Part shown: positions 6,707-44,202 of the stretch, in pieces
Layout: every line of letters starts with the position of its first letter
Numbering within the stretch: position 1 is the first letter of the stretch
Program-made: the position numbers and the translations under genes
NCBI GenBank assembly: GCA_001661245.1
Contig: KV454013.1
Coordinates: 1,210,502-1,274,501, forward strand
DNA length: 64,000 bases
Direction of reading: 5' to 3'
Source: Pachysolen tannophilus NRRL Y-2460
Lineage: Eukaryota
The notes under the pieces: model-generated
Database searches by the model: none
Told to the model about the DNA's origin: nothing
The model's input: only the letters and a program-made list of their open reading frames with translations

Positions 6707-8395
6707 ATGACCTCTCCTGTGGGACGTGAGAATTCACATGGATCTGTACATGAATTTTTTGGCTTGCCTCTGTCGGGTTTGGTTGAAGATGAAAAATTGA
6801 ACGATCATAGGCGTCAGAGTTCTTCGTTACCGGTTAGAAAGGATGGCGCTCTTGTTGGTGAAAGTCGTAATGGAGAATGTGCGGCTGATACTGGTGGAAG
6901 TTTGAGTTGTACGTTTCTGCAACATAATAAAGGCGGTAAGCTAATAGATTCAAGAGAACTAAGAAACAAGATGATACAGTTCAACGATGAAGAAGAAGAT
7001 GAATATGCTATTGATGAAGCTCCCGATATGGATAATGATGGCGGCATTAGTTTCTCAAGAGAGAGGGCAAGGTCATTTACAGATCATATCAAATCGATGA
7101 TGAAGCCGGGAGATGGGAACAGTAGTGGTGCTGTTCCACGTCCCTGTCCAGATCCGGATTCAGTTCCAGATTCAAATCCAGATTCAGTTCGAGATCCAGA
7201 GAATGTTGTTAGGGACAATCGTAAACTTTCTAAACAATTGTCGAAAAGTTCAGAGGCTAGCAATATTAATAATAATATTATTAATAATAAGAATAGTAAT
7301 GTTGATAGCGATGCAGATTCTCATGCCTCAAGGGAATCGCAAGAAACCGAAGAAGATGTCTGTTTTCCAATGATTCCAGCTCATATCACATTGAAAAGTA
7401 TTGATTTTGGTGAAATGCAACAATTCATCAAAGACCAAAGAGAAGAAAATATGATTTCTCGTCAAAGAGAGAAAAAATTGAAAAAGACAACTCCTTTTAA
7501 TAACTACAGTGTTGTTGGCGAAAGTACAACTTCTGCAACTATTGCAACTACTGCAACAAATACAACCGGCACTAGTAGTGATTTAAGGAAAATGAGTTCT
7601 GCAGCTTTAAAATATACCCCGGAAACTTACAAGAAACAGTCTGATAACAATCTAAAGACTTTGTCTTTTGATCAACCTTCAGCTTCCTCTTCAAACAAAT
7701 TGTCTGGAGATGAGAAGAATAATAATGATCTTGAATATACACATGATGTTGGTAGTAGTAGCGAGGAAGGGGTTACATTTGCTGGAAATGAAAATATGTC
7801 AATTCCTCCAGATCGGTTCAGCTTTTTCCATTCAGAAAGCGACGAAACTATACATGCTCCAGATTTTCCATCTTTAGTAGATCCAGGACAATCTGTAAAA
7901 GATTTATTTATTAAAGACGAAGGTACTTGGTGGTTGGATTGTGTTTGTCCAACAGATGCAGAGATGAAGATGTTGGCTAAAGCCTTTGGGATCCATCCAT
8001 TGACAGCAGAAGATATTAGAATGCAAGAAACAAGAGAAAAAGTTGAATTATTTAAAAGTTATTACTTTGTTTGTTTCCATACTTTTGAAACAGACAATGA
8101 AAGTGAAGATTTCTTGGAACCTATTAATGTTTATATAGTTGTCTTTAGAGATGGTGTATTGACATTTCATTTTTCGCCTATTTCACATCCTGCAAATGTG
8201 AGAAGACGTGTGAGACAATTGAGAGATTATGTTAATGTTTCTTCAGATTGGTTATGTTATGCTTTGATTGATGATATAACTGATGGATTTGCACCAGTAA
8301 TTCAATCACTTGAATATGAAGCAGATGCAATAGAAGATAGTGTGTTTGTTGCCAGAGAGTTAGATTTTGGTGCGATGTTAAGAAGAATTGGTGAA
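6707..8395 (+). CDS. ALR1: ALR-like Mg2+ transporter, paralog B, 5' part (truncated by gap)
   Basis: Diverged N-terminus sharing DEKLNDHR..SSSLP and SRESQETEEDVCFPM with paralog A, then the shared core. Confidence 0.9.
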
Positions 8396-8581
8396 NNNNN
8401 NNNNNNNNNNNNNNNNNNNNNNNNNNNNNNNNNNNNNNNNNNNNNNNNNNNNNNNNNNNNNNNNNNNNNNNNNNNNNNNNNNNNNNNNNNNNNNNNNNNN
8501 NNNNNNNNNNNNNNNNNNNNNNNNNNNNNNNNNNNNNNNNNNNNNNNNNNNNNNNNNNNNNNNNNNNNNNNNNNNNNNNNN
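8396..8581. other. Assembly gap
   Basis: Run of N. Confidence 1.
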
Positions 8582-9726
8582 TGACAGCAGAAGATATTAG
8601 AATGCAAGAAACAAGAGAAAAAGTTGAATTATTTAAAAGTTATTACTTTGTTTGTTTCCATACTTTTGAAACAGACAATGAAAGTGAAGATTTCTTGGAA
8701 CCTATTAATGTTTATATAGTTGTCTTTAGAGATGGTGTATTGACATTTCATTTTTCGCCTATTTCACATCCTGCAAATGTGAGAAGACGTGTGAGACAAT
8801 TGAGAGATTATGTTAATGTTTCTTCAGATTGGTTATGTTATGCTTTGATTGATGATATAACTGATGGATTTGCACCAGTAATTCAATCACTTGAATATGA
8901 AGCAGATGCAATAGAAGATAGTGTGTTTGTTGCCAGAGAGTTAGATTTTGGTGCGATGTTAAGAAGAATTGGTGAATCCAGAAGAAAAGTCATGACGTTG
9001 ATGAGATTATTATCTGGTAAAGCAGATGTTATTAAGATGTTTGCCAAAAGGTGTCAAGATGAAGTAGTAACTAATACAGGATATATCAAACCATCGTATG
9101 CTAATTTAGCTGGGTTACAAACTAATGAAAATGGCAATAGCAATAGCAATAGCAATTTCAATGGTGGCGCTTTTTTCCCTCAAACGGGAAACGTTCAGCC
9201 GAGAGGTGACATTGCACTTTATTTGGGTGATATTCAGGATCATGTTTTGACCATGTTTCAAAATTTGTTATCCTATGAGAAAATTTTTTCTAGGTGTCAT
9301 TCTAATTACTTGGCTCAACTTCAGGTTGAATCTTTTAATGCAAATAATAAGGCAACTGAGATTTTATCAAAAGTTACTTTGTTGGGTACTATTTTAATTC
9401 CTACTAATGTAATCACCGGTTTATTTGGTATGAATGTCAAAGTCCCTGGAAAGGATAGTGAAAGTTTTGGTTGGTTTTTTGGGATTCTTGGTGTGTTGAT
9501 AGTATTCATATTAGTTTGTTTAACTTTAGCAAACTATTATTTTAACTTAAAAAGTAAAAATCTGTCGTCAAGTCTTTTAAACTCTATGGATGGTAGCAGG
9601 TCAACCAGATCATTTAGAAGTTTCGGTTTTAGAGCGAGAACCAGTAGCAGCAATAACTCGGGCATGGGTGCTAATAAGTCCATACTGAGCTTCACAAGTA
9701 AAACTAACAAGTCTCATTTTGACTAG
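8582..9726 (+). CDS. ALR1: ALR-like transporter, 3' part (core plus C-terminus ending SHFD); probably completes the gene starting at 6707
   Basis: GLFGMN, TM helix, stop at 9726; 8582-9474 repeats 1338-2230. Confidence 0.85.
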
Positions 9727-23172: not shown

Positions 23173-24588
23173 ATGAATACAACAACTGAAAATGATGAAA
23201 ATTTCAACTGTTATAAGTCAATTAATGGCTCTAATGAAAGTTATTCAAGAGTTCTGCAGAAAACGCTGGGAAATTACAAGAATAATGTTTATGAAAATAG
23301 AAATGGATATACTCCTAAAAAAAATTATACAAGGCCTATACCAAGAGATCATTATGTTAGAAAATCAAGACCAAATAGCATAAAGAGCCAATCTTTCCAA
23401 AATTATGAAAATATTATCAACAATTTGAGTAAATCTGATAATATAGGAAAAACCCAAAATGAATTTGGAAAAAATGAAAGTAAAATAGCAATTAAGCCAA
23501 GCAATTGTGCCTCTTTAAATTTAAATGAATATAATAATTATAATAGTAATAACAATATGGAATTCCCTTTAAGGGGAAATTTTTGTTCTGATGATTCTCC
23601 TATGAATGTTGTTATAGTTGGAGATTCCAAATGTGGTAAAACAAGTTTAATATTATCATTTATAGGTAGCAATGATTTTCATCTTTCAGGTCAAATAATT
23701 TCTACATATTCTAAAAAAATTGAATTAGTGAATTCTAGGAAAAAAATTGAAAGTGTCTTTTGGGATTTACCAGGTGATAAAGATTTTGATAGGTTAAGAC
23801 CATTAGCATATGCTGATGCCAGTGTTTGTCTTTGTTGTTTTGCAATAAATTCCGTCGAAAGTTTGAATAGTGTTGTTGAAAGATGGATACCTGAATTACT
23901 GGTGTATTGTCCTAATATTCCAATAGTACTAGTTGGATTACAAGCAGATTTAAGACATGTATCACTTGAAAAAAATAACAATAATAGAAATAATAGTGTT
24001 AACAAGTTGAATAATGTATTAATACCATATGAGACGTGTCTTAATGTTTCCAATGAATCTAGTATTCGGAACGTTGAGTTATATATTGAATGTTCATCTA
24101 TAACAAAGGATAAAATTGAATATTTGTTTGCCAAGACTTTTGAATTGGCTATTAATTATAGAAATGAAAGAAATTTGCATCATCAATTGGATATATCAGC
24201 AACAGTTCCAACAACAGTTGCAGCACAGGAAAACCCATCCAAAGTTTTATCAACAGCAGCTGCTAAAACAGCATTATTATCCAGACCAAACAGCTCATCT
24301 TATTCACTGATTCCTACATCCACAATAACTAGTGGTAATAGCGGGAATAATTTCAATGAGATTGGTAGCCCAGGAAAATCCAAATCTCATTCCAAGTCTA
24401 ATTCTAAAACAGCAGCAACAGCAATGGTTACATGGCCATCCACTTCAAATACAAATAATTCCATACATTCATCACCAACATCAGCAGCTGTTAAGAAACC
24501 CACCAGGCCTTCAAGAATGAATTCAATGACAAGTTTAAGAGTTGATGATAGAAAATATAATCGAAATGAAAAATGCGTTATCACATAG
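23173..24588 (+). CDS. Atypical Rho-family GTPase with long N/C extensions and CaaX (CVIT)
   Basis: GDSKCGKT, WDLPGDKDFDRLRPLAY, LVGLQADLR, ECSS; first in-frame ATG at 23173. Confidence 0.8.
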   Translation: MNTTTENDENFNCYKSINGSNESYSRVLQKTLGNYKNNVYENRNGYTPKKNYTRPIPRDHYVRKSRPNSIKSQSFQNYENIINNLSKSDNIGKTQNEFGKNESKIAIKPSNCASLNLNEYNNYNSNNNMEFPLRGNFCSDDSPMNVVIVGDSKCGKTSLILSFIGSNDFHLSGQIISTYSKKIELVNSRKKIESVFWDLPGDKDFDRLRPLAYADASVCLCCFAINSVESLNSVVERWIPELLVYCPNIPIVLVGLQADLRHVSLEKNNNNRNNSVNKLNNVLIPYETCLNVSNESSIRNVELYIECSSITKDKIEYLFAKTFELAINYRNERNLHHQLDISATVPTTVAAQENPSKVLSTAAAKTALLSRPNSSSYSLIPTSTITSGNSGNNFNEIGSPGKSKSHSKSNSKTAATAMVTWPSTSNTNNSIHSSPTSAAVKKPTRPSRMNSMTSLRVDDRKYNRNEKCVIT

Positions 24589-24667
24589 TAAAAATAAATC
24601 AAAATCCAGTAATTAAATATTAAAAAATATAAATATATTTTAACTTTTAATTTTTTTTATCTTTTCT

Positions 24668-25108
24668 TCAATTTTGTTTTGGAGTTGTAGTTGTAGTTGT
24701 CGTATTTGTTGCTGCTGCTGTTGCCGTAGCGCTTGTTTGATCCCAATTCTCACTATGGTTAACGTTATGGTTATTATTACCGTTGTCGTTGATATCAACT
24801 GGATCCGCGTATAAATCCGACTTGTAAAAACCTTCCCATAAATTCGAAACACTATCAAAATCTTTTCCTACAGCAACTGAGTTCTCCAACGATCTATTCA
24901 AAGAGTTGACATTGTTTAAAATATTTTCCATTGCCGTGTTTATCTCTGTAATTAAAGAATCTCTTTCTTTTTCGAAAAAAGTCAAGTTTGAAGTTACATT
25001 TGGCTGAACTTGAGTTTGAGTTTGAACTTGAGCTTGAGCCTGTTCCAGCTGATGTTGCTGTTGCTGTTGTTGTTGCTGTTGCTCTGATTGATCTTGTGGA
25101 TTCGACAT
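24668..25108 (-). CDS. DAD1: DASH/Dam1 complex subunit Dad1
   Basis: FEKERDSLITEI...LNRSLENSVAVGKDFDSVSNLW. Confidence 0.93.
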   Translation of the reverse strand: MSNPQDQSEQQQQQQQQQHQLEQAQAQVQTQTQVQPNVTSNLTFFEKERDSLITEINTAMENILNNVNSLNRSLENSVAVGKDFDSVSNLWEGFYKSDLYADPVDINDNGNNNHNVNHSENWDQTSATATAAATNTTTTTTTPKQN

Positions 25109-25136
25109 TATAATTAATATAATTAAAAGTATACAA

Positions 25137-25142
25137 ACGCGT
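25137..25142. promoter_or_regulatory. MCB element (ACGCGT) upstream of DAD1
   Basis: Exact ACGCGT about 30 bp upstream of the ATG in AT-rich DNA. Confidence 0.6.
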
Positions 25143-25254
25143 TAAATTTGAATTCTATTTATTTTTATATTCTTTTACTGTATTAACCGGTAATTTGACA
25201 GTTTTTAAAATTGAACAACTTCAAATATTATTTTAATTATAACAACAATATTCG

Positions 25255-25412
25255 AAATTACCAGGACTTTTTGATCTTATATATAGCTTGATCCACTGTA
25301 TAAGAGCCACTCTAATCCTGGGAGAAGAAATTTGTAATAAATTGAGTGAAAGTTCGGTTATGATTTCTATTAAATTGGTGGAATCATTGACTCTACTATC
25401 ATTCATACATTT
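25255..25412 (+). ncRNA. SNR161: Box H/ACA snoRNA, snR161-like (18S Psi766 and Psi632 guide)
   Basis: Hairpin 1: ccagga 25261-66/tcctgg 25316-21 and tcttatata/tgtataaga; H box AGAAGA 25323-28. Hairpin 2: tgagtga/tcattca; ACA 25407-09. Pockets match 18S UUAGAGUG-UU-CAAAG and GUAG-UU-GAACUU at 15 and 14 nt from the boxes. Confidence 0.85.
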
Positions 25413-25697
25413 ATCAACACTTTTTTTTTTATTTTATTTATTTTTAAAATATTTTAATATATATATATTTAATTTAATTTGAATTTTACTGGAGACTTTA
25501 TCACTAGATGTGATGAATGGTAATTCTTGGAACTTTTTGAGCAAACTTTGAGTTGTAGTTTAAATCTCTTTTTAAATTGATTGATTGATGTGAATTTGAA
25601 AATACTAAAAAAAAATTTTCACCTTTTTTTTTCTTTATTTAAATAATCTTTTCTATTTCTTTTGATTTGATCTATTTATGAGCCAAAATTGTAAGAG

Positions 25698-27338
25698 ATG
25701 ATGATTAGTCGAGGGGTTAGGATCGAGCTGAAGCTGGTGGCGATGCGGTTGAGGCGGGTTCAAAGTGGTGTTTCTCTTAGGGGTTTGTCGAATGTTAACG
25801 TTAACGTTAACGTTGGACAATCGACGGTTTCATTACTGAATTCATTTCTGGATTCATTGCATCAACAACTACCACTGATATTAGACCAAAAAGATTTAGA
25901 TGAGATCAAGAGACAGATTTCAGAGTTAAAGAAAGAAAGAATTAAAGATCCTTTGAATGAACATCTGATATTAGAGAAGGAAGTTTGTAAGTTTATACTG
26001 AATTTAAATTTGTCATTAGAAAATATTCGAAATGATTTCAAGATAATTGAAAATTTTTGGTTTTATAAGAAATCTCCCAAGATTAATGAACTTGTTGAAA
26101 TTTTGGAATTAAGTAAAGTAAATGGATATGGGATTGGTTTATCATCAGTAACAAGAAAAGTTGTTATAGTTCCTTTTACTTTTCCTGGAGATAAAGTATT
26201 AGTGGAGTTGATGAGACATTATGAATTATATGCTGAAGCTAGAATTATTAAAATTATTAAAGAAAAAACTAGTAGAGATGAGTTGATTAAATGTAAATAT
26301 TTTGGAAAATGTTCAGGTTGTCAATTACAACATATAGATTATGAGAATCAATTGATTTATAAACAAGATATTATAAAAATTGCATATGAATTGTATTTTA
26401 AAAAAAATCATGATTTTAATATAACTTCAACTATAGGTTCACCTCTTCAATTTTATTATAGAACAAAATTAACTCCACATTTTGCTAAACCAAATTATAA
26501 AAAAATTTCATCAAATAAAGAGATTCAAATTGGATTTAATGAATTTAATACAAATCGAATTATGGATATTGATAATTGTTCCATAGCTACTGAAAAAGTT
26601 AATGAAGGTTTAATTATAGAACGTGAAAGAATTAAACAACAAAATTCAAGATATAATAATGGGAAATCATTAATAATAAGAGAAACTCAAAATGGTGAAT
26701 TTAAAGATTTTAAAACAAATTCAACAGATTCAGTTTTAGAAATAGTGAATAATAAAAAATTCAAGTTCCATATTAATTCTTTTTTCCAAAATAATAATTC
26801 TTCATTATCATCAATTCTTAAATTTATTGATAAAAACATGTTTTTCAAAAATCAACAAGGAAATTTAATAAAACCAAAAAATTTAATAGATACTTATTGT
26901 GGATCAGGTTTTTTTGGAATCTCTTTATCGGATAATTTTGCAAAAATTATTGGAATAGAAATATCAAGAGAAGGATATTTAAGTTCTATTGAAAATGCAA
27001 GATTAAATAATTTACAAAATGCTAAATTTGTATTGGGTTCAGCTGAAAATATTTTCAAATCTCATGAATTAAATGTCAACCCTGCTGAATCTGTAGTGAT
27101 AATGGACCCTTCTAGAAAAGGCTCGAATCTAAGTTTCATGAAACAACTATCGAATTTTAAACCAAGTTTAATTATTTATATATCTTGTAATGTATTCACA
27201 CAGGCAAGAGACTTGTATAGTTTTTTCGAAAAAACAGAAAATGGTCATTGTTATAAGATAAGAGAAATTAAAGGAATCGATTTCTTCCCTCAAACAAGAC
27301 ATGTTGAAAGTGTTGCCATTTTGGAATTGAAAGACTAA
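25698..27338 (+). CDS. TRM2: tRNA (uracil-5-)-methyltransferase, TrmA/Trm2 family
   Basis: CKYFGKCSGCQLQH, YRTKLTPHF, SFFQNN, LIDTYCGSG, DPSRKG, YISCN, DFFPQTRHVE; Arg-rich N-terminus. Confidence 0.88.
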   Translation: MMISRGVRIELKLVAMRLRRVQSGVSLRGLSNVNVNVNVGQSTVSLLNSFLDSLHQQLPLILDQKDLDEIKRQISELKKERIKDPLNEHLILEKEVCKFILNLNLSLENIRNDFKIIENFWFYKKSPKINELVEILELSKVNGYGIGLSSVTRKVVIVPFTFPGDKVLVELMRHYELYAEARIIKIIKEKTSRDELIKCKYFGKCSGCQLQHIDYENQLIYKQDIIKIAYELYFKKNHDFNITSTIGSPLQFYYRTKLTPHFAKPNYKKISSNKEIQIGFNEFNTNRIMDIDNCSIATEKVNEGLIIERERIKQQNSRYNNGKSLIIRETQNGEFKDFKTNSTDSVLEIVNNKKFKFHINSFFQNNNSSLSSILKFIDKNMFFKNQQGNLIKPKNLIDTYCGSGFFGISLSDNFAKIIGIEISREGYLSSIENARLNNLQNAKFVLGSAENIFKSHELNVNPAESVVIMDPSRKGSNLSFMKQLSNFKPSLIIYISCNVFTQARDLYSFFEKTENGHCYKIREIKGIDFFPQTRHVESVAILELKD

Positions 27339-27508
27339 TACAAATGTATATTATTTATTTATAGAATTACCTTTATTTATTTATTCTAATTACCCATTTT
27401 TACCCCTAAACTAAACCAAGCAAATATATATATATGTTAAAAGAAACATTTTTAAAAAGAAAAAAAAGCGAAGAAACACAATTGAATGCATATGAAAAGC
27501 AACATAAC

Positions 27509-28777
27509 TCATCTTTTGGTCAAATAAGCATGAAGAGACTCGATATTTGACCTTCTAGATAAACCAACTCTTGGTGGTAAATATGATGGAGCCGTGGTAA
27601 TGACTAATTCTGGTAACGGTTTACCCTTGAGACGAAGACCTGAATTTCTCTTTTGTTGTCGAGGAGTTTTCACAACAAATAATTCTGTACTTTGTGTATT
27701 TTCAGTATTTTCATTATTTTGAAGTGGTTCTTCCGTGATATTCTCCATAGGTGTTGTTTTAGTAATTTGATCTGTTACGGATTTTTCAGCGACAACTTCG
27801 TTTAAAAGTTTCTCTTGATCAATTTCTTTATTTGAGTGACAACAATTATCTGTAGATTCTTCTTCTTCTTCTTCTTCTTCATTACAAGAATCTTTAGGGT
27901 CATGTTCTGAATCAAGTAATATGAGTTCTTCTTCTGGATTATTAGGTTCAGAATCAACTGTATCTGTTATCTTTTCCGATAAAAATTCTATTTCGATATC
28001 GCTATCACTGACCTCCGCCACTTGTTTGTTTGCAACCAGTTTTGTTTCTTTCATTGGACACTCTTGAGCCAATATTGTTTCAACAGCAATGGTTTTACTT
28101 CTAATTTTCTTGTTTGCCTTTTTTGTTTTGTTTTGAATCGGTTCAGTTTTTGATCTTTTAGCCTTTTTAGCTTTTGTAGAATTAGAATGCCCAATTAGTT
28201 CTTCAAATACAAATACTTGAGCTTCTGGTACACATTCCGTCTGGCTCTTTTGTTGTTCTTGTTCTTGTCCATCAACTTTATCAGCAACTACTTCTTTTGG
28301 TTCCTCCTCAATGACTTGAATTTGAACACCAGTAGACAGATTATCAATATCATCAGAATTCAAGAAATTTTGTTGCAATTCTTGGGTTGCTACAATATTC
28401 TGAGACGTATTTGCTAAAAATTGTGATTGTATCATAGCACCAATATCACCATTACCTTCTTGAGGAAATGTGGTATTTAATGTTGAATTACTATTATTTA
28501 TAACGGCGCTAAACTCTTCATCGGGTTGTGATCCAGAATTAGAATCACATTTTTCTCCAGACTCTAGCCGCTCAACTTCTATTTCACAACCACCATCAAC
28601 AACCATTGTTGAGTTATGTTTCAGCATCGCTTCATCTTTTAATCTAGCAAAAAGTGATTTGGAAATCAATTCTTCTTGTAAAATCAAAGCTTTTTGATCT
28701 TTATTCTGCTTTAAATTCTCCTGCAAGGAAAAATCAATACTCTTCAATGGCGGTAAGTCCCAGACATTATCGCCCAT
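27509..28777 (-). CDS. Acidic, probably disordered protein with C-terminal RVGLSRRSNIESLH motif
   Basis: 422-codon ORF with ATG; function not securely recognised. Confidence 0.7.
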   Translation of the reverse strand: MGDNVWDLPPLKSIDFSLQENLKQNKDQKALILQEELISKSLFARLKDEAMLKHNSTMVVDGGCEIEVERLESGEKCDSNSGSQPDEEFSAVINNSNSTLNTTFPQEGNGDIGAMIQSQFLANTSQNIVATQELQQNFLNSDDIDNLSTGVQIQVIEEEPKEVVADKVDGQEQEQQKSQTECVPEAQVFVFEELIGHSNSTKAKKAKRSKTEPIQNKTKKANKKIRSKTIAVETILAQECPMKETKLVANKQVAEVSDSDIEIEFLSEKITDTVDSEPNNPEEELILLDSEHDPKDSCNEEEEEEEESTDNCCHSNKEIDQEKLLNEVVAEKSVTDQITKTTPMENITEEPLQNNENTENTQSTELFVVKTPRQQKRNSGLRLKGKPLPELVITTAPSYLPPRVGLSRRSNIESLHAYLTKR

Positions 28778-28897
28778 CTTCTACTTCTGCTATCTTCCTG
28801 CCACTTCCACTTCCACTTCTAAGTCCGTCTTATCGGCTCTTGTTGGCGTCGTCGTAGCTTCTGTATTTTATGTCCTTTGTTATATTGTAGAGGAATT

Positions 28898-28914
28898 TAT
28901 AAAAATGCGCGCGT
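28898..28914 (+). promoter_or_regulatory. TATA box (TATAAAAA) and MCB-like GCGCGCGT between the 27509-28777 ORF and the TER candidate
   Basis: TATAAAAA at 28898-28905, about 90 bp before the predicted TER 5' helix; CGCGT at 28910-28914. Confidence 0.5.
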
Positions 28915-28989
28915 TGTTTACTTTTTATACCAAAAGAAAAATATCAACAAAACGCTTTCATATTATCAATACTTTTATTCTTTTTTGAA

Positions 28990-30005
28990 GTTGCAATCAT
29001 TTCATTCTACGAATAAGAGTATATGTTTCTGTTAATCATCAATTCGAAGGTTTTTTTTATTGAGGAGCTAAAAAAGAGAGTTTTTTTGTTTTGTTGGAGA
29101 AGTTTTGATGTTTCTGTTCCATTTCATGTTCAATTGCAACTGTTTCACAAGTTTGAAATCTTTTACTTCTAGAATGTTACCATTTCAAATGGTGGATCTA
29201 GTGTAAAAGGTATTGTTCACCACTCACACCACTCTAATAGATTTTTATTTTTGTGACAAGTGCCTTGGATCACGGTATAGTTCACGTTTACGTTGATATT
29301 GGAGATTATATTTCAAGTTAAGTTAAGTCTTTCTTCGTTTACTCTTTGTTTTTTGTTGTTGTTTTTTTTTTTGGCTCAGTATTATATGGACAAATCTTCC
29401 AATAAAGGAGAATGCATTTATAACAGTACTCGTTTTTTATAGAGATGTTATTCAATAGTTTGCAAAAGGAAACATTGGAAAGATTATTTTTGTTTTTTTT
29501 TTTCAAATTGTTTCATGATTTAAACTATAGTGTCGTATTCCGGATAATAGTTTATTGGGATTAATTTGTTCTGAAAGCTTTGAGATTACAACAAGAAAGG
29601 AAGAAGAAGAAGAAGAATTTAGCTTTTTAGAAGTATAATCTCTATTTCGACTTTAATAAAATTTTGGGGAGTTTTTTTTTCAAATGTTATTTTTCCTCTC
29701 CATTTAATTATAAATAAAAGGAAATAAATAGCATTCCAAAGTTTGAAAAGTTGTTATCAAAGGGAAAAGGCAAAAGAACATTAAACGTATTTTCCAACTT
29801 TTTAAACAGAAACTTTTTCTTTCTTTGAGAAGAAATATTATATTTATGAGTAGGGCTTTTCCTTTCTTTTTATGGAAATGATCAATACATTATCTTATGT
29901 ATGTCGAAAGTTGATAATTTCTTTCTTAATTGAATCGATAGATTAGATTCTTACTTTGAATGATTGATTGCTCTTTTTTTTTTTTTTTTTATTATTTTTA
30001 TCTTT
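28990..30005 (+). ncRNA. TER1: Telomerase RNA candidate (TER/TLC1 homolog), about 1 kb; ends approximate
   Basis: Template 29218-29234; boundary hairpin 29160-29209; long arm 29301-29643; pseudoknot 29665-29735; core-enclosing helix 29137-47/29744-53; terminal helix 28993-29020/29947-29971; no ORF; near PDX3 and an snR161-like gene. Confidence 0.85.
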
Positions 30006-30080
30006 TATCATTTAGAGCATAAGTTTATACTCTAAATGATAAAACAATACTAGCTAATCTATTTATCTTCTAAAGATTAA

Positions 30081-31226
30081 TTATAATTCACAAAAAGTCA
30101 GACTATTTAATCCAACAACCCAATTATAAACACCTAAAATCAACATCATTAATACAAAACAAGAACATATCGAAAACGAGCCATATATATATCTATCTTT
30201 CACTTTACCAAAACCGAACAATTCAGCTACAAATGTAGAAACTGTGCTTAATGAGCCACTAAATCCAATACTGATTGCATCTAAAACTAAACAACTTAAA
30301 TAATCATCAACAATATATTCATCTCCACCATAAGGTTTTTTCCCATAAGATAATAACGTTGTTATAGCTAATACCAAGACTGCAATAAAATTTGCTAGAT
30401 AAGTACCTATAAAAATTCTATCAGATTTTGTGTTAAATTTCAATGCCAAGTAATATCTTAAATAACAACCAAAGGGAGCAAAGCAACAAGCTAACGACCA
30501 AGGTTTCCAAAAATCATGATTATGCAATGCGCAAGATAATACCAACATTAAAACATCCAACAGGAATCCCAAAATAGGTATTATAAAATCAAATAATGAA
30601 ATCATTGATCTAGAAAATTTCCAACCAAGATTATGATCTACATAATTTCCTAATTCTTTACCCATTCTATATCCAAAAATAGATAACCCCAATTGTGTTA
30701 ACAATACAGCGAAAAATTCCATAGTTCCATAACCTGTTGTTGGATACAGAGCACCACCATTTAAATTTAACGTCTTGGTAAGAATTTCTAAAATATATGA
30801 AGAAAAAGATGAAAAAGTCCCACAATAACCTGTAGTTAAACCAATATATAACGGAATCCTTTTTTTATTTTCAAACCGCGGAACATGATAACGCTTAATA
30901 AACCTCCTGATATCATTTGACTCAACTTTTGATAATTTATAAGTCCCATTTGTATCTGTCAGTTCAAGATCATGAATAAGTAAATTCTCCCAAACTTCAG
31001 CAGATGAGTTAATATACCCCATTATAAAACATGCCGTAAAGTTAACCCATACAACACTAACTCCATTGTTATGAACATAATTATTATCATAATACGTCAA
31101 TTTACTTAAGGCTATCCTTGATAAGCAACCCAATACACTCCAAAAACTTAAATCAAAAAAAATCTTCACATTTGTCAAAATCGAGTGCGCATCAACCAAG
31201 ATAACTTTATTCGATAGCTGATTCAT
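30081..31226 (-). CDS. FEX1: Fluoride export channel FEX (two fused Fluc/CrcB domains)
   Basis: GCLSR..L, WVNFTACFIMG, GLTTGYCGTFSSFSS, APFGCYLRY, GTYLANF, GFSGSLSTVSTF; first ATG at 31226. Confidence 0.92.
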   Translation of the reverse strand: MNQLSNKVILVDAHSILTNVKIFFDLSFWSVLGCLSRIALSKLTYYDNNYVHNNGVSVVWVNFTACFIMGYINSSAEVWENLLIHDLELTDTNGTYKLSKVESNDIRRFIKRYHVPRFENKKRIPLYIGLTTGYCGTFSSFSSYILEILTKTLNLNGGALYPTTGYGTMEFFAVLLTQLGLSIFGYRMGKELGNYVDHNLGWKFSRSMISLFDFIIPILGFLLDVLMLVLSCALHNHDFWKPWSLACCFAPFGCYLRYYLALKFNTKSDRIFIGTYLANFIAVLVLAITTLLSYGKKPYGGDEYIVDDYLSCLVLDAISIGFSGSLSTVSTFVAELFGFGKVKDRYIYGSFSICSCFVLMMLILGVYNWVVGLNSLTFCEL

Positions 31227-31414
31227 TTCCTCGACAGATTCCAAGCTTTACCACAGATCATCAGTCAAAACAATCTCAAATATATTTATATATTTATATA
31301 TTTATATATATATATACGAAACCACCTTTGTTCTTTTTTTTTTTGACCTATTTTCAATTATAGTCGTGCGGTTTACTACAAAACCTAATCCGGTAATAAG
31401 AGCCAATTGAATTT

Positions 31415-31485
31415 GCCGCCTAATTCCCCGCTTCTTTGCCCGCCCAGATTCCGCCTAAAGTTAGGCCGCAAATCTTCCCGCCAAA
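31415..31485. promoter_or_regulatory. Cluster of CCGC(C) motifs in the FEX/ENO divergent promoter
   Basis: Six CCGC cores within 70 bp of otherwise AT-rich DNA. Confidence 0.55.
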
Positions 31486-31908
31486 TCTTGAAGAAAACGA
31501 CAACGACGAAGACAATGACGAAGACGATGATGATGGCGACGACGACAACGACGAAGAATAGAAAAGCAGAGATATGCTCACTTTTTATACTCAGCTAGCT
31601 GGGGTTTCATAAGAAAGCTAAGAAAGCCAGGTGTACTGGCAAATATCCTGATTTTGCTGTTCTGTTGTAATTCCGCTGTGTATTAAAAACTGGAGTTGCA
31701 ATAGAACTGCTACTATGCATCTGTCTTTATATATTATCGACTATCAACTCTGGGCTATGAGCTATGTGCTATGATTTATGAGCTATGTATGGTATTTATG
31801 GCATTTATGTAGTTTTTCAAGTTTAATACCCTCGATACTCATCTTTATTAGTTATTTATGCATGCATTGCGCGATGAGTTCGATGTAGAGTTGCATTTAT
31901 TTCCCCTT

Positions 31909-31925
31909 CGGTGGGTAGGTTACCG
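31909..31925. promoter_or_regulatory. CGG-N11-CCG (Gal4-type UAS) upstream of enolase
   Basis: ttCGGtgggtaggttaCCGaa with exact 11-nt spacer; TATATAA at about 32027. Confidence 0.55.
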
Positions 31926-32103
31926 AAATTGGGGATGAATGAGAGGTACCCGAGCAGGTGATAATTTGATTAAAGCAACAGATTGGGTGTTTTTGAGCAT
32001 TTAAAAAGGAGGAGAGATCTTGATGGTATATAAGGTTAGTAAAATGTTGAAAAAAAAAAAAAAAACAAATATTGAGAATTAATTTAGGAGTATTATCGGT
32101 AAT

Positions 32104-33420
32104 ATGACTATTCAAAAAATTTTTGCTCGTTACGTTTATGATTCTAGAGGGAATCCAACTGTAGAAGTTGATCTTCATACAGAAAATGGGTTATTTAGAT
32201 CTATTGTTCCTTCTGGTGCATCTACTGGTGTTCATGAAGCTTTAGAATTAAGAGATGGTGATATGACAAAATGGCAGGGTAAAGGTGTTTTAAAAGCAGT
32301 TTCCAATGTTAACAATATAATTGCTCCAGCTTTGATTAAGGCAAATTTAGATGTTAAAGATCAAGAAGCAATTGATAATTTTATGATTAAATTGGATGGT
32401 ACTCCAAATAAATCTAAATTGGGTGCAAATGCTATATTGGGTGTTTCTTTAGCATCTTCTAAAGCTGCTGCTGCTGAAAAGGGTATTCCACTTTATGCTT
32501 ATATTGCAAGTTTATCTAATACTCCTAAACCTTATGTTTTACCTGTTCCTTTCCAAAATGTATTAAATGGTGGTACTCATGCTGGAGGAGCATTAGCTTT
32601 TCAAGAATTTATGCTTGCTCCTATCGGTGCACCAACGTTTAGTGAAGCTTTAAGAATCAATTCAGAAATTTATCATATTTTAAAATCATTAGCTAAAAAA
32701 AAATATGGTCAATCTGCTGGTAATGTTGGTGATGAAGGTGGAGTTGCTCCAAATATCAATACTCCAAGAGAAGCTTTAGATTTAGTTTGTGCAGCTATTA
32801 AACAGGCTGGTTATGAAGGTATTGTTGGTATTGGAATTGATCCAGCATCATCTGAATTTTTTAAAGATGGGAAATATGATTTAGATTTTAAAAATCCTAA
32901 TTCTGATAAATCTAAATGGCTTACAGGTACTCAACTTGCTTCTCTTTATATAGAGTTGATGAAAGAATATCCAATTGTATTATTGGAAGATCCTTTTGCT
33001 GAAGATGATTGGGAATCATGGACTCATTTCCGTACTTTAATTGATCCAAATTTCCCAATTGTTGGTGATGATTTAACTGTTACAAATACTATTAGAATTC
33101 AAAAAGCTATTAAAGAAAATTGTGCAAATAGTTTATTATTAAAAGTTAACCAAATTGGTACTTTAACCGAATCTTTAAATGCAGCAAAATTGGCTTATAG
33201 TGCTGGATGGGGTATCTTGGTTTCTCATAGATCTGGAGAAACAGAAGATACTTATATTGCTGATTTAACTGTAGGTCTTAGAACTGGTCATATTAAATCC
33301 GGTGCTCCTGCTAGATCTGAAAGATTAGCTAAATGGAACCAAATCTTGAGAATAGAAGAAGAGTTGAAAGGTAAAGCAATTTATGCTGGAAAGAATTTCC
33401 ACAAATCTCTTCAAATTTAA
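32104..33420 (+). CDS. ENO: Enolase (divergent paralog, weak codon bias)
   Basis: [57 protein letters not shown]. Confidence 0.97.
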
Positions 33421-33486
33421 ACTTGGAACTAAACTATATAGTATAATTTATTAAGATATATTTATGGAAAGAAGTATTTAAATCGA

Positions 33487-33644
33487 AAGGCCCCGCCTAT
33501 TAATAGTCTCGGCCGCCTATTTCTACTGCCTATTTCCACCGCCAAAAAAAAAAAATTTCAAAGGCGGATGTTTCCTGCTAGTCTCTTTCCGCCCAGTCTC
33601 TTTCCGCCAGACTTTCCGCCTAATTTTTTTTTTGGCGGGGCCTT
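33487..33644. repeat. 158-bp GC-rich element with 11-bp inverted ends and internal CCGCC repeats
   Basis: aaggccccgcc at 33487-97 and ggcggggcctt at 33634-44; internal agtctctttccgcc twice. Confidence 0.65.
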
Positions 33645-33926
33645 CTGCCTTTTGCTTCCTTTGCTGCATTTGCTGCTTGCTTGCTGCCTGCCTGCCTTTA
33701 CTTCCTGCCTGATGTTAATGAATGTCACCAGTTTACTTTAAATATATCAACGTTGATGACTAGTCGGAATTTAGTGGTTTCTAAAGTTTGATATATATAT
33801 ATATATATATATATATAGATGTTAAACTCTTTTTTTTTGCTTTTTTTTAAACATTTACAATTACAATTACAATTACTTTTCTTTGAATTAAAACTTTAGT
33901 TAATTTTGTGATTTAAATTTAAGGCA

Positions 33927-34694
33927 ATGACTAATAAAGTTGATAACCATACTGAAGAACCTATAATTTGTAAGTATTTGAGTGAAAAAAATTTATTTAA
34001 ATTCCTAATTAAAAATTGAGTTGAATATATATTAACAAAATATTGAATAGTTGCTCCAAAGACTTATCAATATGATAAGGATTCATTGGATATTACTGAA
34101 GTTGATGAGGATCCAATAAAGCAATTTGAAAAATGGTTTAAAGAAGCAATGGAATCTGGAGAACCACTTCCAGAATCAGTAAATTTTGCAACTGCAGAAT
34201 TACCATCAGGTAAAGTTTCTTCTAGAATTGTATTATTTAAAGAATTAGATCATAAAGGATTTATTATTTATTCTAATTGGAAAGATTCGAAAAAGGGTAA
34301 ACAATTAAGTACAAATCCATATGGTGCTTTAGCATTTTTTTGGAAAAATTTACAAAGACAAGTTAGAATTGAAGGAATTACAGAATTTGTTAGTAGAGAA
34401 ACTTCTCAAAGATATTTTAATACAAGACCAAGAGGTTCAAAAATAGGTGCTTGGTCATCACCTCAATCTACAGAAATTTCAAGTAGAAAAGAATTTGAAG
34501 AAATTTATTCCAAGAGAGAAGAAGAATTTAAAAATGAGAAAGAAATTCCATGTCCTGAATATTGGGGTGGATTAAGAATAATTCCATTAGAAATTGAATT
34601 TTGGCAAGGAAGACCAAGTAGATTACATGATAGAATTGTTTATAAACGTGAAACAGAAAATGATAATTGGAAAATTGTAAGAATTGCTCCATAA
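33927..34694 (+). CDS. PDX3: Pyridoxamine 5'-phosphate oxidase, 2 exons (33927-33969, 34051-34694)
   Basis: Intron 33970-34050 (GTAAGT...TATTAAC...TAG) gives PIIFAPKTYQY; motifs SRIVLFKELD, QRQVRIEG, EFWQGRPSRLHDR. Confidence 0.96.
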
Positions 34695-34817
34695 CATGAA
34701 GAAAAGATAAGAAATAAAAGAAAATTGAATTGATCTTAATACAACAACAACAACAAAAACAAAAAAAAAAAATCTACAATTTCTAATTAAATGAATTATA
34801 CATAGTTAAATATATTT

Positions 34818-35420
34818 TTAAAATTTAGAAACAGCTTCATAAAAACTTTTACCTTGAATTTCAGCAATTCCCAATTCTGTTTTATTTGGTTGTCTTGAAC
34901 CATCTGCACCAGCGAAAGTACCAGCACCCCAAGCAGAACCACCATGAATTTCATCAAAAGAAGTTAATAATGGGAAAGCAGGACCATAACCTAATGGAAT
35001 ATAAATGATACCATGATGAGCTAAAGTTGATAAGGCATTTTGAACTGTAACTTCTTGTCCACCACCTGGAGTACCAGTTGAAACAAATATACCTGCAGCT
35101 TTTTGATATAAAGCACCTGAACTCCATAATTGACCAGTTTGATCAATAAAAGTTTTCCATTGAGCTGGGAAATTACCATATCTTGTTGGAATACCAAATA
35201 AGAAAGCATCATAATCTTTTAAAGTATCCATTGAAGCAATTGGATAATCTGGTTTTGGAGCAGCATGCATCAGTTTCAAAACATCTTCAGATAATGTTTC
35301 CGGAATTTGATAAATATCAGCTTTACCTCCAGCAGCTTCAACACCTTTCTTTTCTGCTTCAGCCAATTGAGAAATATGACCATACATAGAATATATGATA
35401 ATTGCAATTTTTGGAGCCAT
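34818..35420 (-). CDS. PST2: Flavodoxin-like NAD(P)H:quinone oxidoreductase (WrbA family)
   Basis: [38 protein letters not shown]. Confidence 0.9.
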
Positions 35421-35673
35421 TTTTTATTTTCACTTTTTTTATTAATACAAGTAATCTAATTTGTAAAATTAAAATTAAAAATAAAATTTAAAAATTAATT
35501 ATAATACCATTCAAGATTTTGATTTCCTTTTATATTCTCTCCTCCTACCTATTTCTCTCTAATTTCTATCATATTCTATCATATTCTCTCGTTTGGAACC
35601 ATAATTCAAAGAGAGTACACGTAGATTGGAAGACGAAAAGGTGCAAATGCACAGTCATGCAATGTCCTTATAA

Positions 35674-35703
35674 TTAGTAAGGTGTTTGTAAGCAAATTAC
35701 TAA
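35674..35703. promoter_or_regulatory. Inverted pair of Yap1/Cap1 response elements (TTACTAA)
   Basis: ttagtaa at 35674-80 and ttactaa at 35697-703 in the PST2/YCP4 divergent promoter. Confidence 0.6.
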
Positions 35704-35917
35704 TTTTAAGGCAAAATGATAGTTAAATTGATCGCCATAAACAGTTGGAAAGAAGGGAAGCTAGCTGGGCACAGGAGACCCATTTGAAAATATAGAAGGA
35801 GAGAGAATAAGAGATTGAAATGGGGTTTATATTGAATTTTCATGAATATAGTTTTATATATAAATATATATATTTATATATGAATTATAGATTGGAAGAT
35901 CAGACGGTAATATAATA

Positions 35918-36835
35918 ATGACAAAGATAGCCGTAAGTATGGGGTACTGGGATACTGGAGTTTTCAATTACTGGATTATTAGATTATTGGATTATTGGGG
36001 GAGTTGAATCCTTTTTTTCAAAATTTTTTTTTTTTTATTTTATATAATTATTGATCGAATTACTAACATTTCTTCTTAGATTATTGTATATTCGACTTAT
36101 GGCCATGTATTGGCATTGTCAAAAGAGATTCAAAAAGGTTTAAAGTCACAGGATAAAAATATTCAAGCAGATATTTTCCAAGTTCCAGAAACTTTATCTG
36201 AAGAAGTATTATCCCTGATTAGTGCACCACCAAAGGATCCATCTATTCCAGCTGCAACTACTCAAGTATTACTGGATTATGATGGGTTTTTATTTGGGAT
36301 TCCAACAAGGTATGGTAATATTCCATCTCAATTGGCTACTTTAATTGATCAAACTGGAGAATTATGGGCTACTGCGGCTTTATATCATAAACCAGCAGGT
36401 GTATTTGTTTCAACAGGTACTCAAGGTGGTGGACAAGAAGTTACTATAAAAAGTTTTCTTTCCTTTTTAGCTCATCATGGTATTATTTATGTTCCATTAG
36501 GTTATGGTCCTGCTTTCCCATTATTAACTTCATTTGATGAAGCTCATGGTGGATCTCCTTGGGGTTCTGGTACTTTTGCTGGAGTTGATGGTTCAATACA
36601 ACCTTCAGAAAATACTTTAAAACTTGCTTTTTTACAAGGTCAAGAATTTGCAAAAGCTGCTGCAAAATTTATTCCAGAAAATAAAAAGACAATTAATACA
36701 ACTGGTGAAATTTCATCAAAAAAATTACAAGATGCTAGAACAGGACAAAGTAAACCAGGAGCTACTTCAACAACTAAACCAGAAGCCACTTCTGATGAAG
36801 GTACATTTTGTGGTTTCAAATGTACTATCATCTAA
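35918..36835 (+). CDS. YCP4: Flavodoxin-like protein with CaaX tail (CTII), 2 exons (35918-35932, 36080-36835)
   Basis: Intron 35933-36079 (GTAAGT...TACTAAC...TAG) gives MTKIA|IIVYSTYGHV; WrbA motifs; C-terminal extension. Confidence 0.88.
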
Positions 36836-37111
36836 AAAAAAAAAAAAAAATAAAGAAAAATCATATAAAGAAATTTAATTTTAAACCAAGTCTAGACTGA
36901 CTGTCTTGACTCTCTTTCACTAGATTTCACTAGATTTTTTTTTTTTTTTTATTTTTCTTTTTTCTTTCTTTTCGATTCTTTTTGCTTTTGTTTTAATTTT
37001 AATTTAAATTCGACATTTGTCTTCTTGCTTTCTCAAGTAACAATCAAAAATAAAAAAAAGAAAGAAATAAATAAATAAATAAATTTATAGTTATTTTATG
37101 TATCTATGTAT

Positions 37112-43905: not shown

Positions 43906-44136
43906 TCTCTAAAATAACAATTGATCAATCAATATATACAAAGTATATATTATTATAATTATACTCCATATATATATATATATATATATTTGTATTTATA
44001 GTATTTTATTATATGCTTTACTTCTTATTATGGTGTGACCCTACTATTACAGAGCCCCCTTTAAAACCAAACTGGGGCGGAAATGAGGGGTTTCAACAAC
44101 AAAAAACGAGGGCTTCAAAAAATAATAGCAAAAAGC

Positions 44137-44202
44137 GGTGTAGGATGTTATAAGTGGTGTAACTGGTGTAGGATGTTTAAATGGTGTGAGTGGTGTAGGG
44201 TT
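44137..44202 (+). repeat. Degenerate interstitial telomere-like array (about 9-bp period, GGTGT cores)
   Basis: agtggtgta actggtgta ggatgttta aatggtgtg agtggtgta; contains tggtgtgagtggtgt at 44182-96. Confidence 0.7.

Follow-up and report, generated by a model that had tools for sequence, protein, structure and literature searches.

Telomerase RNA (TER) evolves so fast that most budding-yeast orders have no annotated gene for it (Waldl et al. 2018, PMC6115765). According to that study, branches outside Saccharomycetaceae remain without an annotated TER, and the new TERs that it describes all fall in Saccharomycetaceae except that of Ogataea parapolymorpha. Here, we compare described TERs with a candidate TER gene of Pachysolen tannophilus NRRL Y-2460. 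The candidate lies in a stretch of 64,000 nucleotides from contig KV454013.1 (assembly GCA_001661245.1, forward-strand positions 1,210,502 to 1,274,501), hereafter the window, to which all coordinates refer. This yeast DNA is rich in A+T, its G+C content being 30.4%. The described RNAs are TLC1 of Saccharomyces cerevisiae, TER1 of Kluyveromyces lactis and HpTER of Hansenula polymorpha (Smekalova et al. 2013, PMC3851723). HpTER was compared by its published description, not by its sequence.

TLC1 and TER1 are RNAs of about 1 kb with a core-enclosing helix and a U-rich pseudoknot of the triple-helix type. An Est1 arm is present in both, as is a long terminal arm in which the 5′ and 3′ ends come together (PMC2094081, PMC3683933). 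The Pachysolen candidate has putative counterparts of each. HpTER is shorter, at 680–689 nt when mature, and templates the 8-nt repeat GGGTGGCG. As in the candidate, a template of about two repeats stands beside a boundary hairpin, at a spacing of about 6 nt, and the RNA has a three-arm layout (PMC3851723). Also common to HpTER and the candidate are GAAUG (CS2 in HpTER) between template and pseudoknot, GUCGA after a junction hairpin (in the candidate, a predicted one) and the want of a canonical Sm site (PMC3851723). In contrast to TLC1 and TER1, the candidate has no AU5-6GR Sm site near its 3′ end and no canonical 0 / A / GU junction linkers. The telomere repeat of S. cerevisiae is irregular TG1-3, whereas that of the candidate is regular, with a unit of 9 bp.

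The candidate sits in a gap of 1303 bp (28778–30080) between two minus-strand open reading frames (ORFs).

27509–28777, minus strand: 422-codon ORF, acidic and of low complexity, with no Pfam family; divergent from the candidate
28990–29975, plus strand: proposed TER gene body of about 1 kb, both ends predicted from the terminal helix
30081–31244, minus strand: CrcB/FEX-type fluoride exporter gene, the other border of the gap

A first reading of this DNA, made from the sequence only, had described the kilobase as ORF-free and proposed a telomerase RNA gene. Stop-free frames in 29000–29975 are indeed all of 61 codons or fewer (translation table 26). We conclude that the gap very probably holds the TER gene of a CUG-Ala-type yeast, which would be transcribed from the plus strand between about 28990 and about 29975. 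The reading is this probable because the gap contains a perfect template for the published terminal repeat of P. tannophilus. The layout of the predicted fold and linkage to snR161 and PDX3 further support the proposal.

Match between the candidate template and the published repeat

Malyavko et al. 2019 took terminal repeats of P. tannophilus from the ends of the genome assembly and call the repeat putative (PMC6510891). Among the 64 units in their Supplementary Table S5, 59 are the major unit GGTGTGAGT. The minor units are GGCGTGAGT (1), GGTGGTGAGT (1), GGTGTGAGA (2) and GGTGTGAGAGT (1). Their oligonucleotide "PACTA" consists of TGTGAGTGG three times over (PMC6510891, Table 1). The sequence-only reading had predicted telomeres of (GGTGTGAGT)n, a unit identical to the published major one.

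29218–29234, plus strand: template CACCACUCACACCACUC (tract CACCACTCACACCACTC), 9 nt copied plus an 8-nt alignment repeat

The 17 nt of the tract are the exact complement of GGTGTGAGT over 1.9 repeats. The match breaks at both flanks, at U29217 and at U29235. Hence, we read the template as nine copied and eight alignment bases. The unit it encodes is GAGTGGTGT, equal to GGTGTGAGT after circular permutation, and copying 29234 down to 29218 yields GAGTGGTGTGAGTGGTG. Direct repeats at both template ends are a typical feature of TER templates (Waldl et al., PMC6115765). The Pachysolen tract complements more than one telomeric repeat and has repeated bases at both ends. In addition, CUCU at 29232–35 would permit a two-base slip giving GAGAGT. 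We infer that the published variant GGTGTGAGAGT would arise by such slippage.

Chance counts were derived from the base composition of the window, for matches of at least 17 nt, counting every phase and both strands. By chance alone, the gap should contain 1.8e-7 such matches and the window 8.5e-6. In 12.6 Mb, which we take to be the size of the genome, the expectation is about 0.002. With up to three mismatches allowed, the window contains three matches compared to 0.01 expected from 100 shuffles, none of which reached three.

These features suggest the following cycle. The eight bases at the 3′ side of the template (29227–34) would pair with a G-strand ending in ...GAGTGGTG, and the reverse transcriptase would copy 29226 down to 29218. 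Synthesis would halt at the boundary hairpin (29158–29211) and the non-matching U29217. The end would then be realigned, so that one GGTGTGAGT unit is added per round. A catalytic core would be built from the U-rich pseudoknot and the enclosing helix. We take the 360-nt arm, which contains GAAUG, to be the likely Est1 arm, and the long arm in which the 5′ and 3′ ends pair would bear the distal junction and the 3′-end signals. The candidate leaves the known mechanism of telomerase unchanged.

The 9-bp repeat is not new: it was published as putative in 2019 (PMC6510891); the passages of that paper on the repeat do not describe the RNA gene. We found no description of a P. tannophilus TER gene in the open literature, of which few supplements were covered, and the gene may be described elsewhere. 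Nor, in the open literature examined, did we see telomerase RNA treated together with Alaninales, Nakazawaea, Peterozyma or CUG-Ala. The main texts of PMC12449055 and PMC7857110 mention neither Pachysolen nor the repeat, and one TelFinder supplement does not mention Pachysolen. A firm Pachysolen TER would link the published repeat to its template. It would also open the way to knockouts and template mutations in a yeast that has two Rap1 paralogues (PMC6510891).

The template 17-mer also occurs elsewhere. A metagenome scan returned at least 119 loci. Comparison of the gap with 119 of these by blastn gave only 19–22 nt at the pattern itself, plus a low-complexity GAA match. Among 80 of the at least 119 loci, tandem copies are present at three (L011, L024 and L077); these are GC-rich internal 9-nt repeats and not yeast telomeres. 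L024 has about 7 copies of GGTGTGAGT in an internal array (203–263) and L077 has about 11 (1497–1594). Both lie in GC-rich metagenome contigs, are mutual reverse complements and are unrelated to yeast telomeres. Hence, the motif alone is no telomere marker.

Folding of the candidate RNA

We computed the unconstrained minimum-free-energy (MFE) fold of 28990–30005 and compared it with shuffles. The plus strand has an MFE of -240.2 kcal/mol, compared to -199.3 +/- 7.7 kcal/mol for shuffles (z -5.35; 0 of 20 as low). For the minus strand the value is -165.2 kcal/mol (z -3.73). The plus strand therefore folds better than the minus strand, which fits a plus-strand RNA using G-U pairs. As controls, six other gaps in the window were folded on both strands with 8 shuffles each, and 10 of the 12 z-scores fall between +0.5 and -2.5. 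For individual parts of the candidate, z-scores span -3.3 to -6.3, with none of 100–300 shuffles equally good.

28993–29112, plus strand: terminal arm, 5′ strand; nine helices of 6–9 bp with 29777–29971
29777–29971, plus strand: terminal arm, 3′ strand; partner of 28993–29112
29136–29147, plus strand: core-enclosing helix, 5′ strand; 11 bp with one bulged G, partner 29744–29754
29744–29754, plus strand: core-enclosing helix, 3′ strand; partner of 29136–29147
29158–29211, plus strand: template-boundary hairpin; 9 + 5 + 8 bp
29292–29651, plus strand: long arm between template and pseudoknot, in the position of the Est1 arm; 360 nt, z -6.34, 0 of 100 shuffles as good
29665–29735, plus strand: candidate pseudoknot; stem 1 29665–71 / 29696–702, U9 loop 29672–80, stem 2 29683–92 / 29726–35

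The fold contains the boundary hairpin, a largely unpaired template, the enclosing helix, three arms and stem 2 of the pseudoknot. All 11 strings quoted in the sequence-only reading occur at the coordinates it gave. The arm pairs that it drew are each complementary, allowing G-U pairs or one bulge. Its terminal helix (28993–29007 / 29958–29971) was recovered by the unconstrained fold, as was the core-enclosing helix, which surrounds template and pseudoknot. For the terminal arm z is -3.25, and the 3′ strand was shuffled 100 times with no result as good.

Two other elements returned in altered form. The boundary hairpin was recovered and now extends over 29158–29211; its distance to the template is 6 nt, not the 8 nt first given. 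Its MFE is -19.6, compared to -7.3 +/- 2.4 for shuffles (z -5.19; 0 of 300). In the long arm, helices 29300–14 / 29630–44 (15 bp) and 29397–406 / 29551–60 were recovered, whereas the proposed GAATGC/GTATTC helix is absent from the fold. The arm carries GAAUG at 29410–29414, of which AAUG (29411–14) is left unpaired in an internal loop. That GAAUG is the CS2 motif of the Est1 arm, as stated in the first reading, is confirmed in print (PMC3851723).

Stem 2 of the pseudoknot also appears in the unconstrained fold; stem 1 is not representable in a nested fold. The end of stem 2 beside the junction is UUU/AAA. A pseudoknot stem energy as low as the observed -16.7 was reached by 1 of 500 shuffles. 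The fungal CS3 motif AUGA (PMC3851723) reads AUGU in the candidate pseudoknot.

Neighbouring genes, promoter and 3′ end

TLC1 is flanked by PDX3 and CSG2, and snR161 lies at -252 to -412 of TLC1 (PMC3683933). The adjacency of TLC1 to PDX3 and snR161 had been cited in the first reading. Both markers have counterparts within about 4 kb of the Pachysolen candidate.

25248–25412, plus strand: snR161-like H/ACA snoRNA; 45.9 bits where the gathering threshold is 50, model matched over its full length (1–165)
34149–34694, plus strand: PDX3-like pyridoxamine-phosphate oxidase ORF; PNP_phzG_C 1.7e-21, PNPOx_N 3.4e-15

The snR161-like RNA carries H and ACA boxes and lies 3.6 kb upstream of the candidate. 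Its score is just below the Rfam gathering score; hence, automatic annotation would miss it. The PDX3-like ORF is 4.1 kb downstream. Linkage to snR161 and PDX3 is thus common to the S. cerevisiae and Pachysolen loci, whereas gene order differs. Here, TRM2-like, 422-codon, FEX-like and enolase genes separate the three markers. We saw no CSG2-like gene among 30 scanned of the 36 ATG ORFs of at least 120 codons in the window. In contrast, the HpTER gene lies between PDD4 and an aminotransferase gene and not near snR161 or PDX3 (PMC3851723). Such linkage is a practical search handle. If the neighbourhood is ancestral, as considered below, snR161 and PDX3 could be the markers by which TERs still missing from other orders are found.

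The candidate and the 422-codon ORF have a 213-bp divergent promoter in common, with a TATA box and a further element, GCGCGCGT.

28898–28905, plus strand: predicted TATA box TATAAAAA; the terminal helix begins about 90 nt downstream
28907–28914, strand not assigned: putative MCB-type element GCGCGCGT, two overlapping matches to DCGCGH

A TATA box at 28898 was part of the original proposal, and TATAAA is found there. Its spacing agrees with the 40–120 bp quoted for yeast (PMC3683933). The GCGCGCGT site follows closely on TATAAAAA, at about 85 nt ahead of the terminal helix, and contains the only CGCGCG in the 64-kb window. The MCB consensus is DCGCGH, and TLC1 has MCB elements at -108 and -120 (PMC3683933). 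A putative MCB-type promoter element is another likeness between TLC1 and the candidate.

Two features mark the 3′ side of the candidate.

29825–29929, plus strand: candidate multi-branch junction in the 3′ arm, drawn from the fold
29974–29990, plus strand: T17 tract, directly after the terminal helix

The junction hairpin (29885–29902) opens with an A-U pair and is preceded by CA and followed by GUCGA (29903–07). Linker L3 of the three-way junction in H. polymorpha TER is GUCGA (PMC3851723); in the window, GTCGA has a frequency of 0.23 per kb per strand. The canonical linkers are L1 = 0, L2 = A and L3 = GU (Brown et al. 2007, PMC2094081). Unlike HpTER, which acquires its 3′ end through cleavage by the spliceosome (GUGAGU ... 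UACUAAC; PMC3851723), the candidate has no UACUAAC. We found no support for a spliceosomal model of its 3′ end: the one GUAUGU (29899) is inside the predicted junction hairpin, and instead of UACUAAC there is only CUAAU at 30054. AUUUUUA (29994–30000), put forward with reservation as an Sm site in the first reading, is not canonical. The T17 tract may belong to a 3′-end or termination signal.

These comparisons lead to a wider proposal, which we consider possible but rather doubtful. The candidate would be the first TER from the CUG-Ala order, and the TER-snR161-PDX3 neighbourhood, known from Saccharomyces, would be ancestral to far more of the budding yeasts than has been supposed in synteny searches. 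Maturation would proceed with neither a canonical Sm site nor spliceosomal cleavage, perhaps ending at T17. A firm TER would be a second reference, beside H. polymorpha, for change in the core, Est1 arm and 3′ end outside Saccharomycetaceae and Candida.

Alternative explanations and other features of the window

Several results weigh against a TER gene in the gap. The first of these concern how readily single elements arise. As a 5-mer, GAAUG has a frequency of 0.9 per kb per strand across the window and by itself is weak evidence. The bare pseudoknot pattern is present in 226 of 500 shuffles. Two of the 12 control strand-regions, both within 35421–37111, reach z-scores of -3.96 and -6.14. The global z-score alone is therefore not diagnostic, because control spacers with pairing A17 and T16 tracts also score high. 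At the extreme, the gap would be ordinary spacer, with a C/A-rich direct repeat and helices that have no function. AT-rich sequence offers many drawable helices, and both pseudoknot and three-way-junction patterns are common in shuffles. We nevertheless consider a chance origin extremely improbable, given the expectation of 1.8e-7 for the 17-nt match in the gap. Furthermore, 0 of 100 shuffles had three matches within three mismatches, and part-wise z-scores are low throughout (-3.3 to -6.3).

The high-scoring control is a gene-free gap of 1.7 kb. The z-score of -6.14 belongs to the minus strand of 35421–36406 and that of -3.96 to the plus strand of 36126–37111. Most of this signal is due to pairing among A/T runs, including the A17 and T16 tracts. 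No RNA family was found in 35421–37111 at gathering score.

A second point against the TER reading is that telomere-like sequence also occurs at an internal site of the window.

44182–44196, plus strand: 15 nt of telomere repeat at an interstitial site, TGGTGTGAGTGGTGT, in a GGTGT cluster (44130–44200) in the divergent promoter of DUF2015 and ATP11

The 15-nt copy is expected 1.7e-4 times in the window by chance. Within the cluster, GGTGTAGGATGTT occurs twice, and TGGTGTGAGTGGTGTAGGG contains the 15-nt copy. The cluster resembles Rap1-type binding sites, and the repeat probably also acts as an internal protein-binding site; if so, the telomere repeat doubles as a promoter element. The PACTA oligonucleotide scored '+' in competition with H. 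polymorpha Rap1B, a protein that in promoters binds the similar motif GGTGYGAGGWGT (PMC6510891). The 17-nt tract is 440 bp upstream of the ATG of the 422-codon ORF. Hence, it could likewise be an interstitial Rap1-type site, in a long promoter of that ORF. The helices would then be AT-rich spacer, of the kind that can match the global z-score, and the real TER would lie elsewhere. We think this unlikely. The tract is isolated, with no motif cluster around it, extends over 17 rather than 15 nt and has template-like boundaries. It begins 6 nt past a hairpin with a z-score of -5.19, within an enclosing helix and with a stable U9 pseudoknot downstream. Moreover, a promoter needs no 1.3-kb gap, and linkage to snR161 and PDX3 is left unexplained.

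The remaining points against a working TER gene concern what the candidate lacks and where it was sought. No Rfam telomerase family, including Sacc_telomerase, was found at gathering score in the whole window or with E up to 10 in 24000–36000. Such a non-match is expected because the RNA is so divergent (PMC6115765). An AU4-7GR Sm site was not found in 29750–30100, and the only AU4-7GR, at 29661, overlaps stem 1 of the pseudoknot. A search for three-way junctions with strict linkers (0 / A / GU) gave 3 hits, all outside the 3′ arm, compared to 2.94 in shuffles. The search for template loci covered the 64-kb window, and the genome may have another template-bearing locus. The gap might accordingly contain a structured non-coding RNA gene of another kind. 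It could be a second or decayed TER copy, or another long RNA with a telomere-like tract, and the working TER would then be elsewhere. Missing Sm site and junction would suit this explanation, to which we assign only a slight probability. The 17-nt template contains no mismatch, and the core elements are both intact and of high thermodynamic stability. In yeasts studied so far, TER is not known to have more than one gene copy. HpTER, likewise, has no canonical Sm site (PMC3851723).

A functional TER gene in 28778–30080 hence remains our preferred reading. With respect to the CUG-Ala assignment, CTG codons are rare, at 0–7 per gene in 10 genes. Positions that could be aligned in ATP11 and prephenate dehydratase are in variable regions and give no indication either way. 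Elsewhere in the window, two CorA-type ORFs (6707–8395 and 8602–9726) repeat the same stretch of about 125 residues (MQETREKVELFKSYYF...) around an N run at 8396–8581. This repeat has the appearance of a duplication that arose in assembly, at a gap or a masked stretch.

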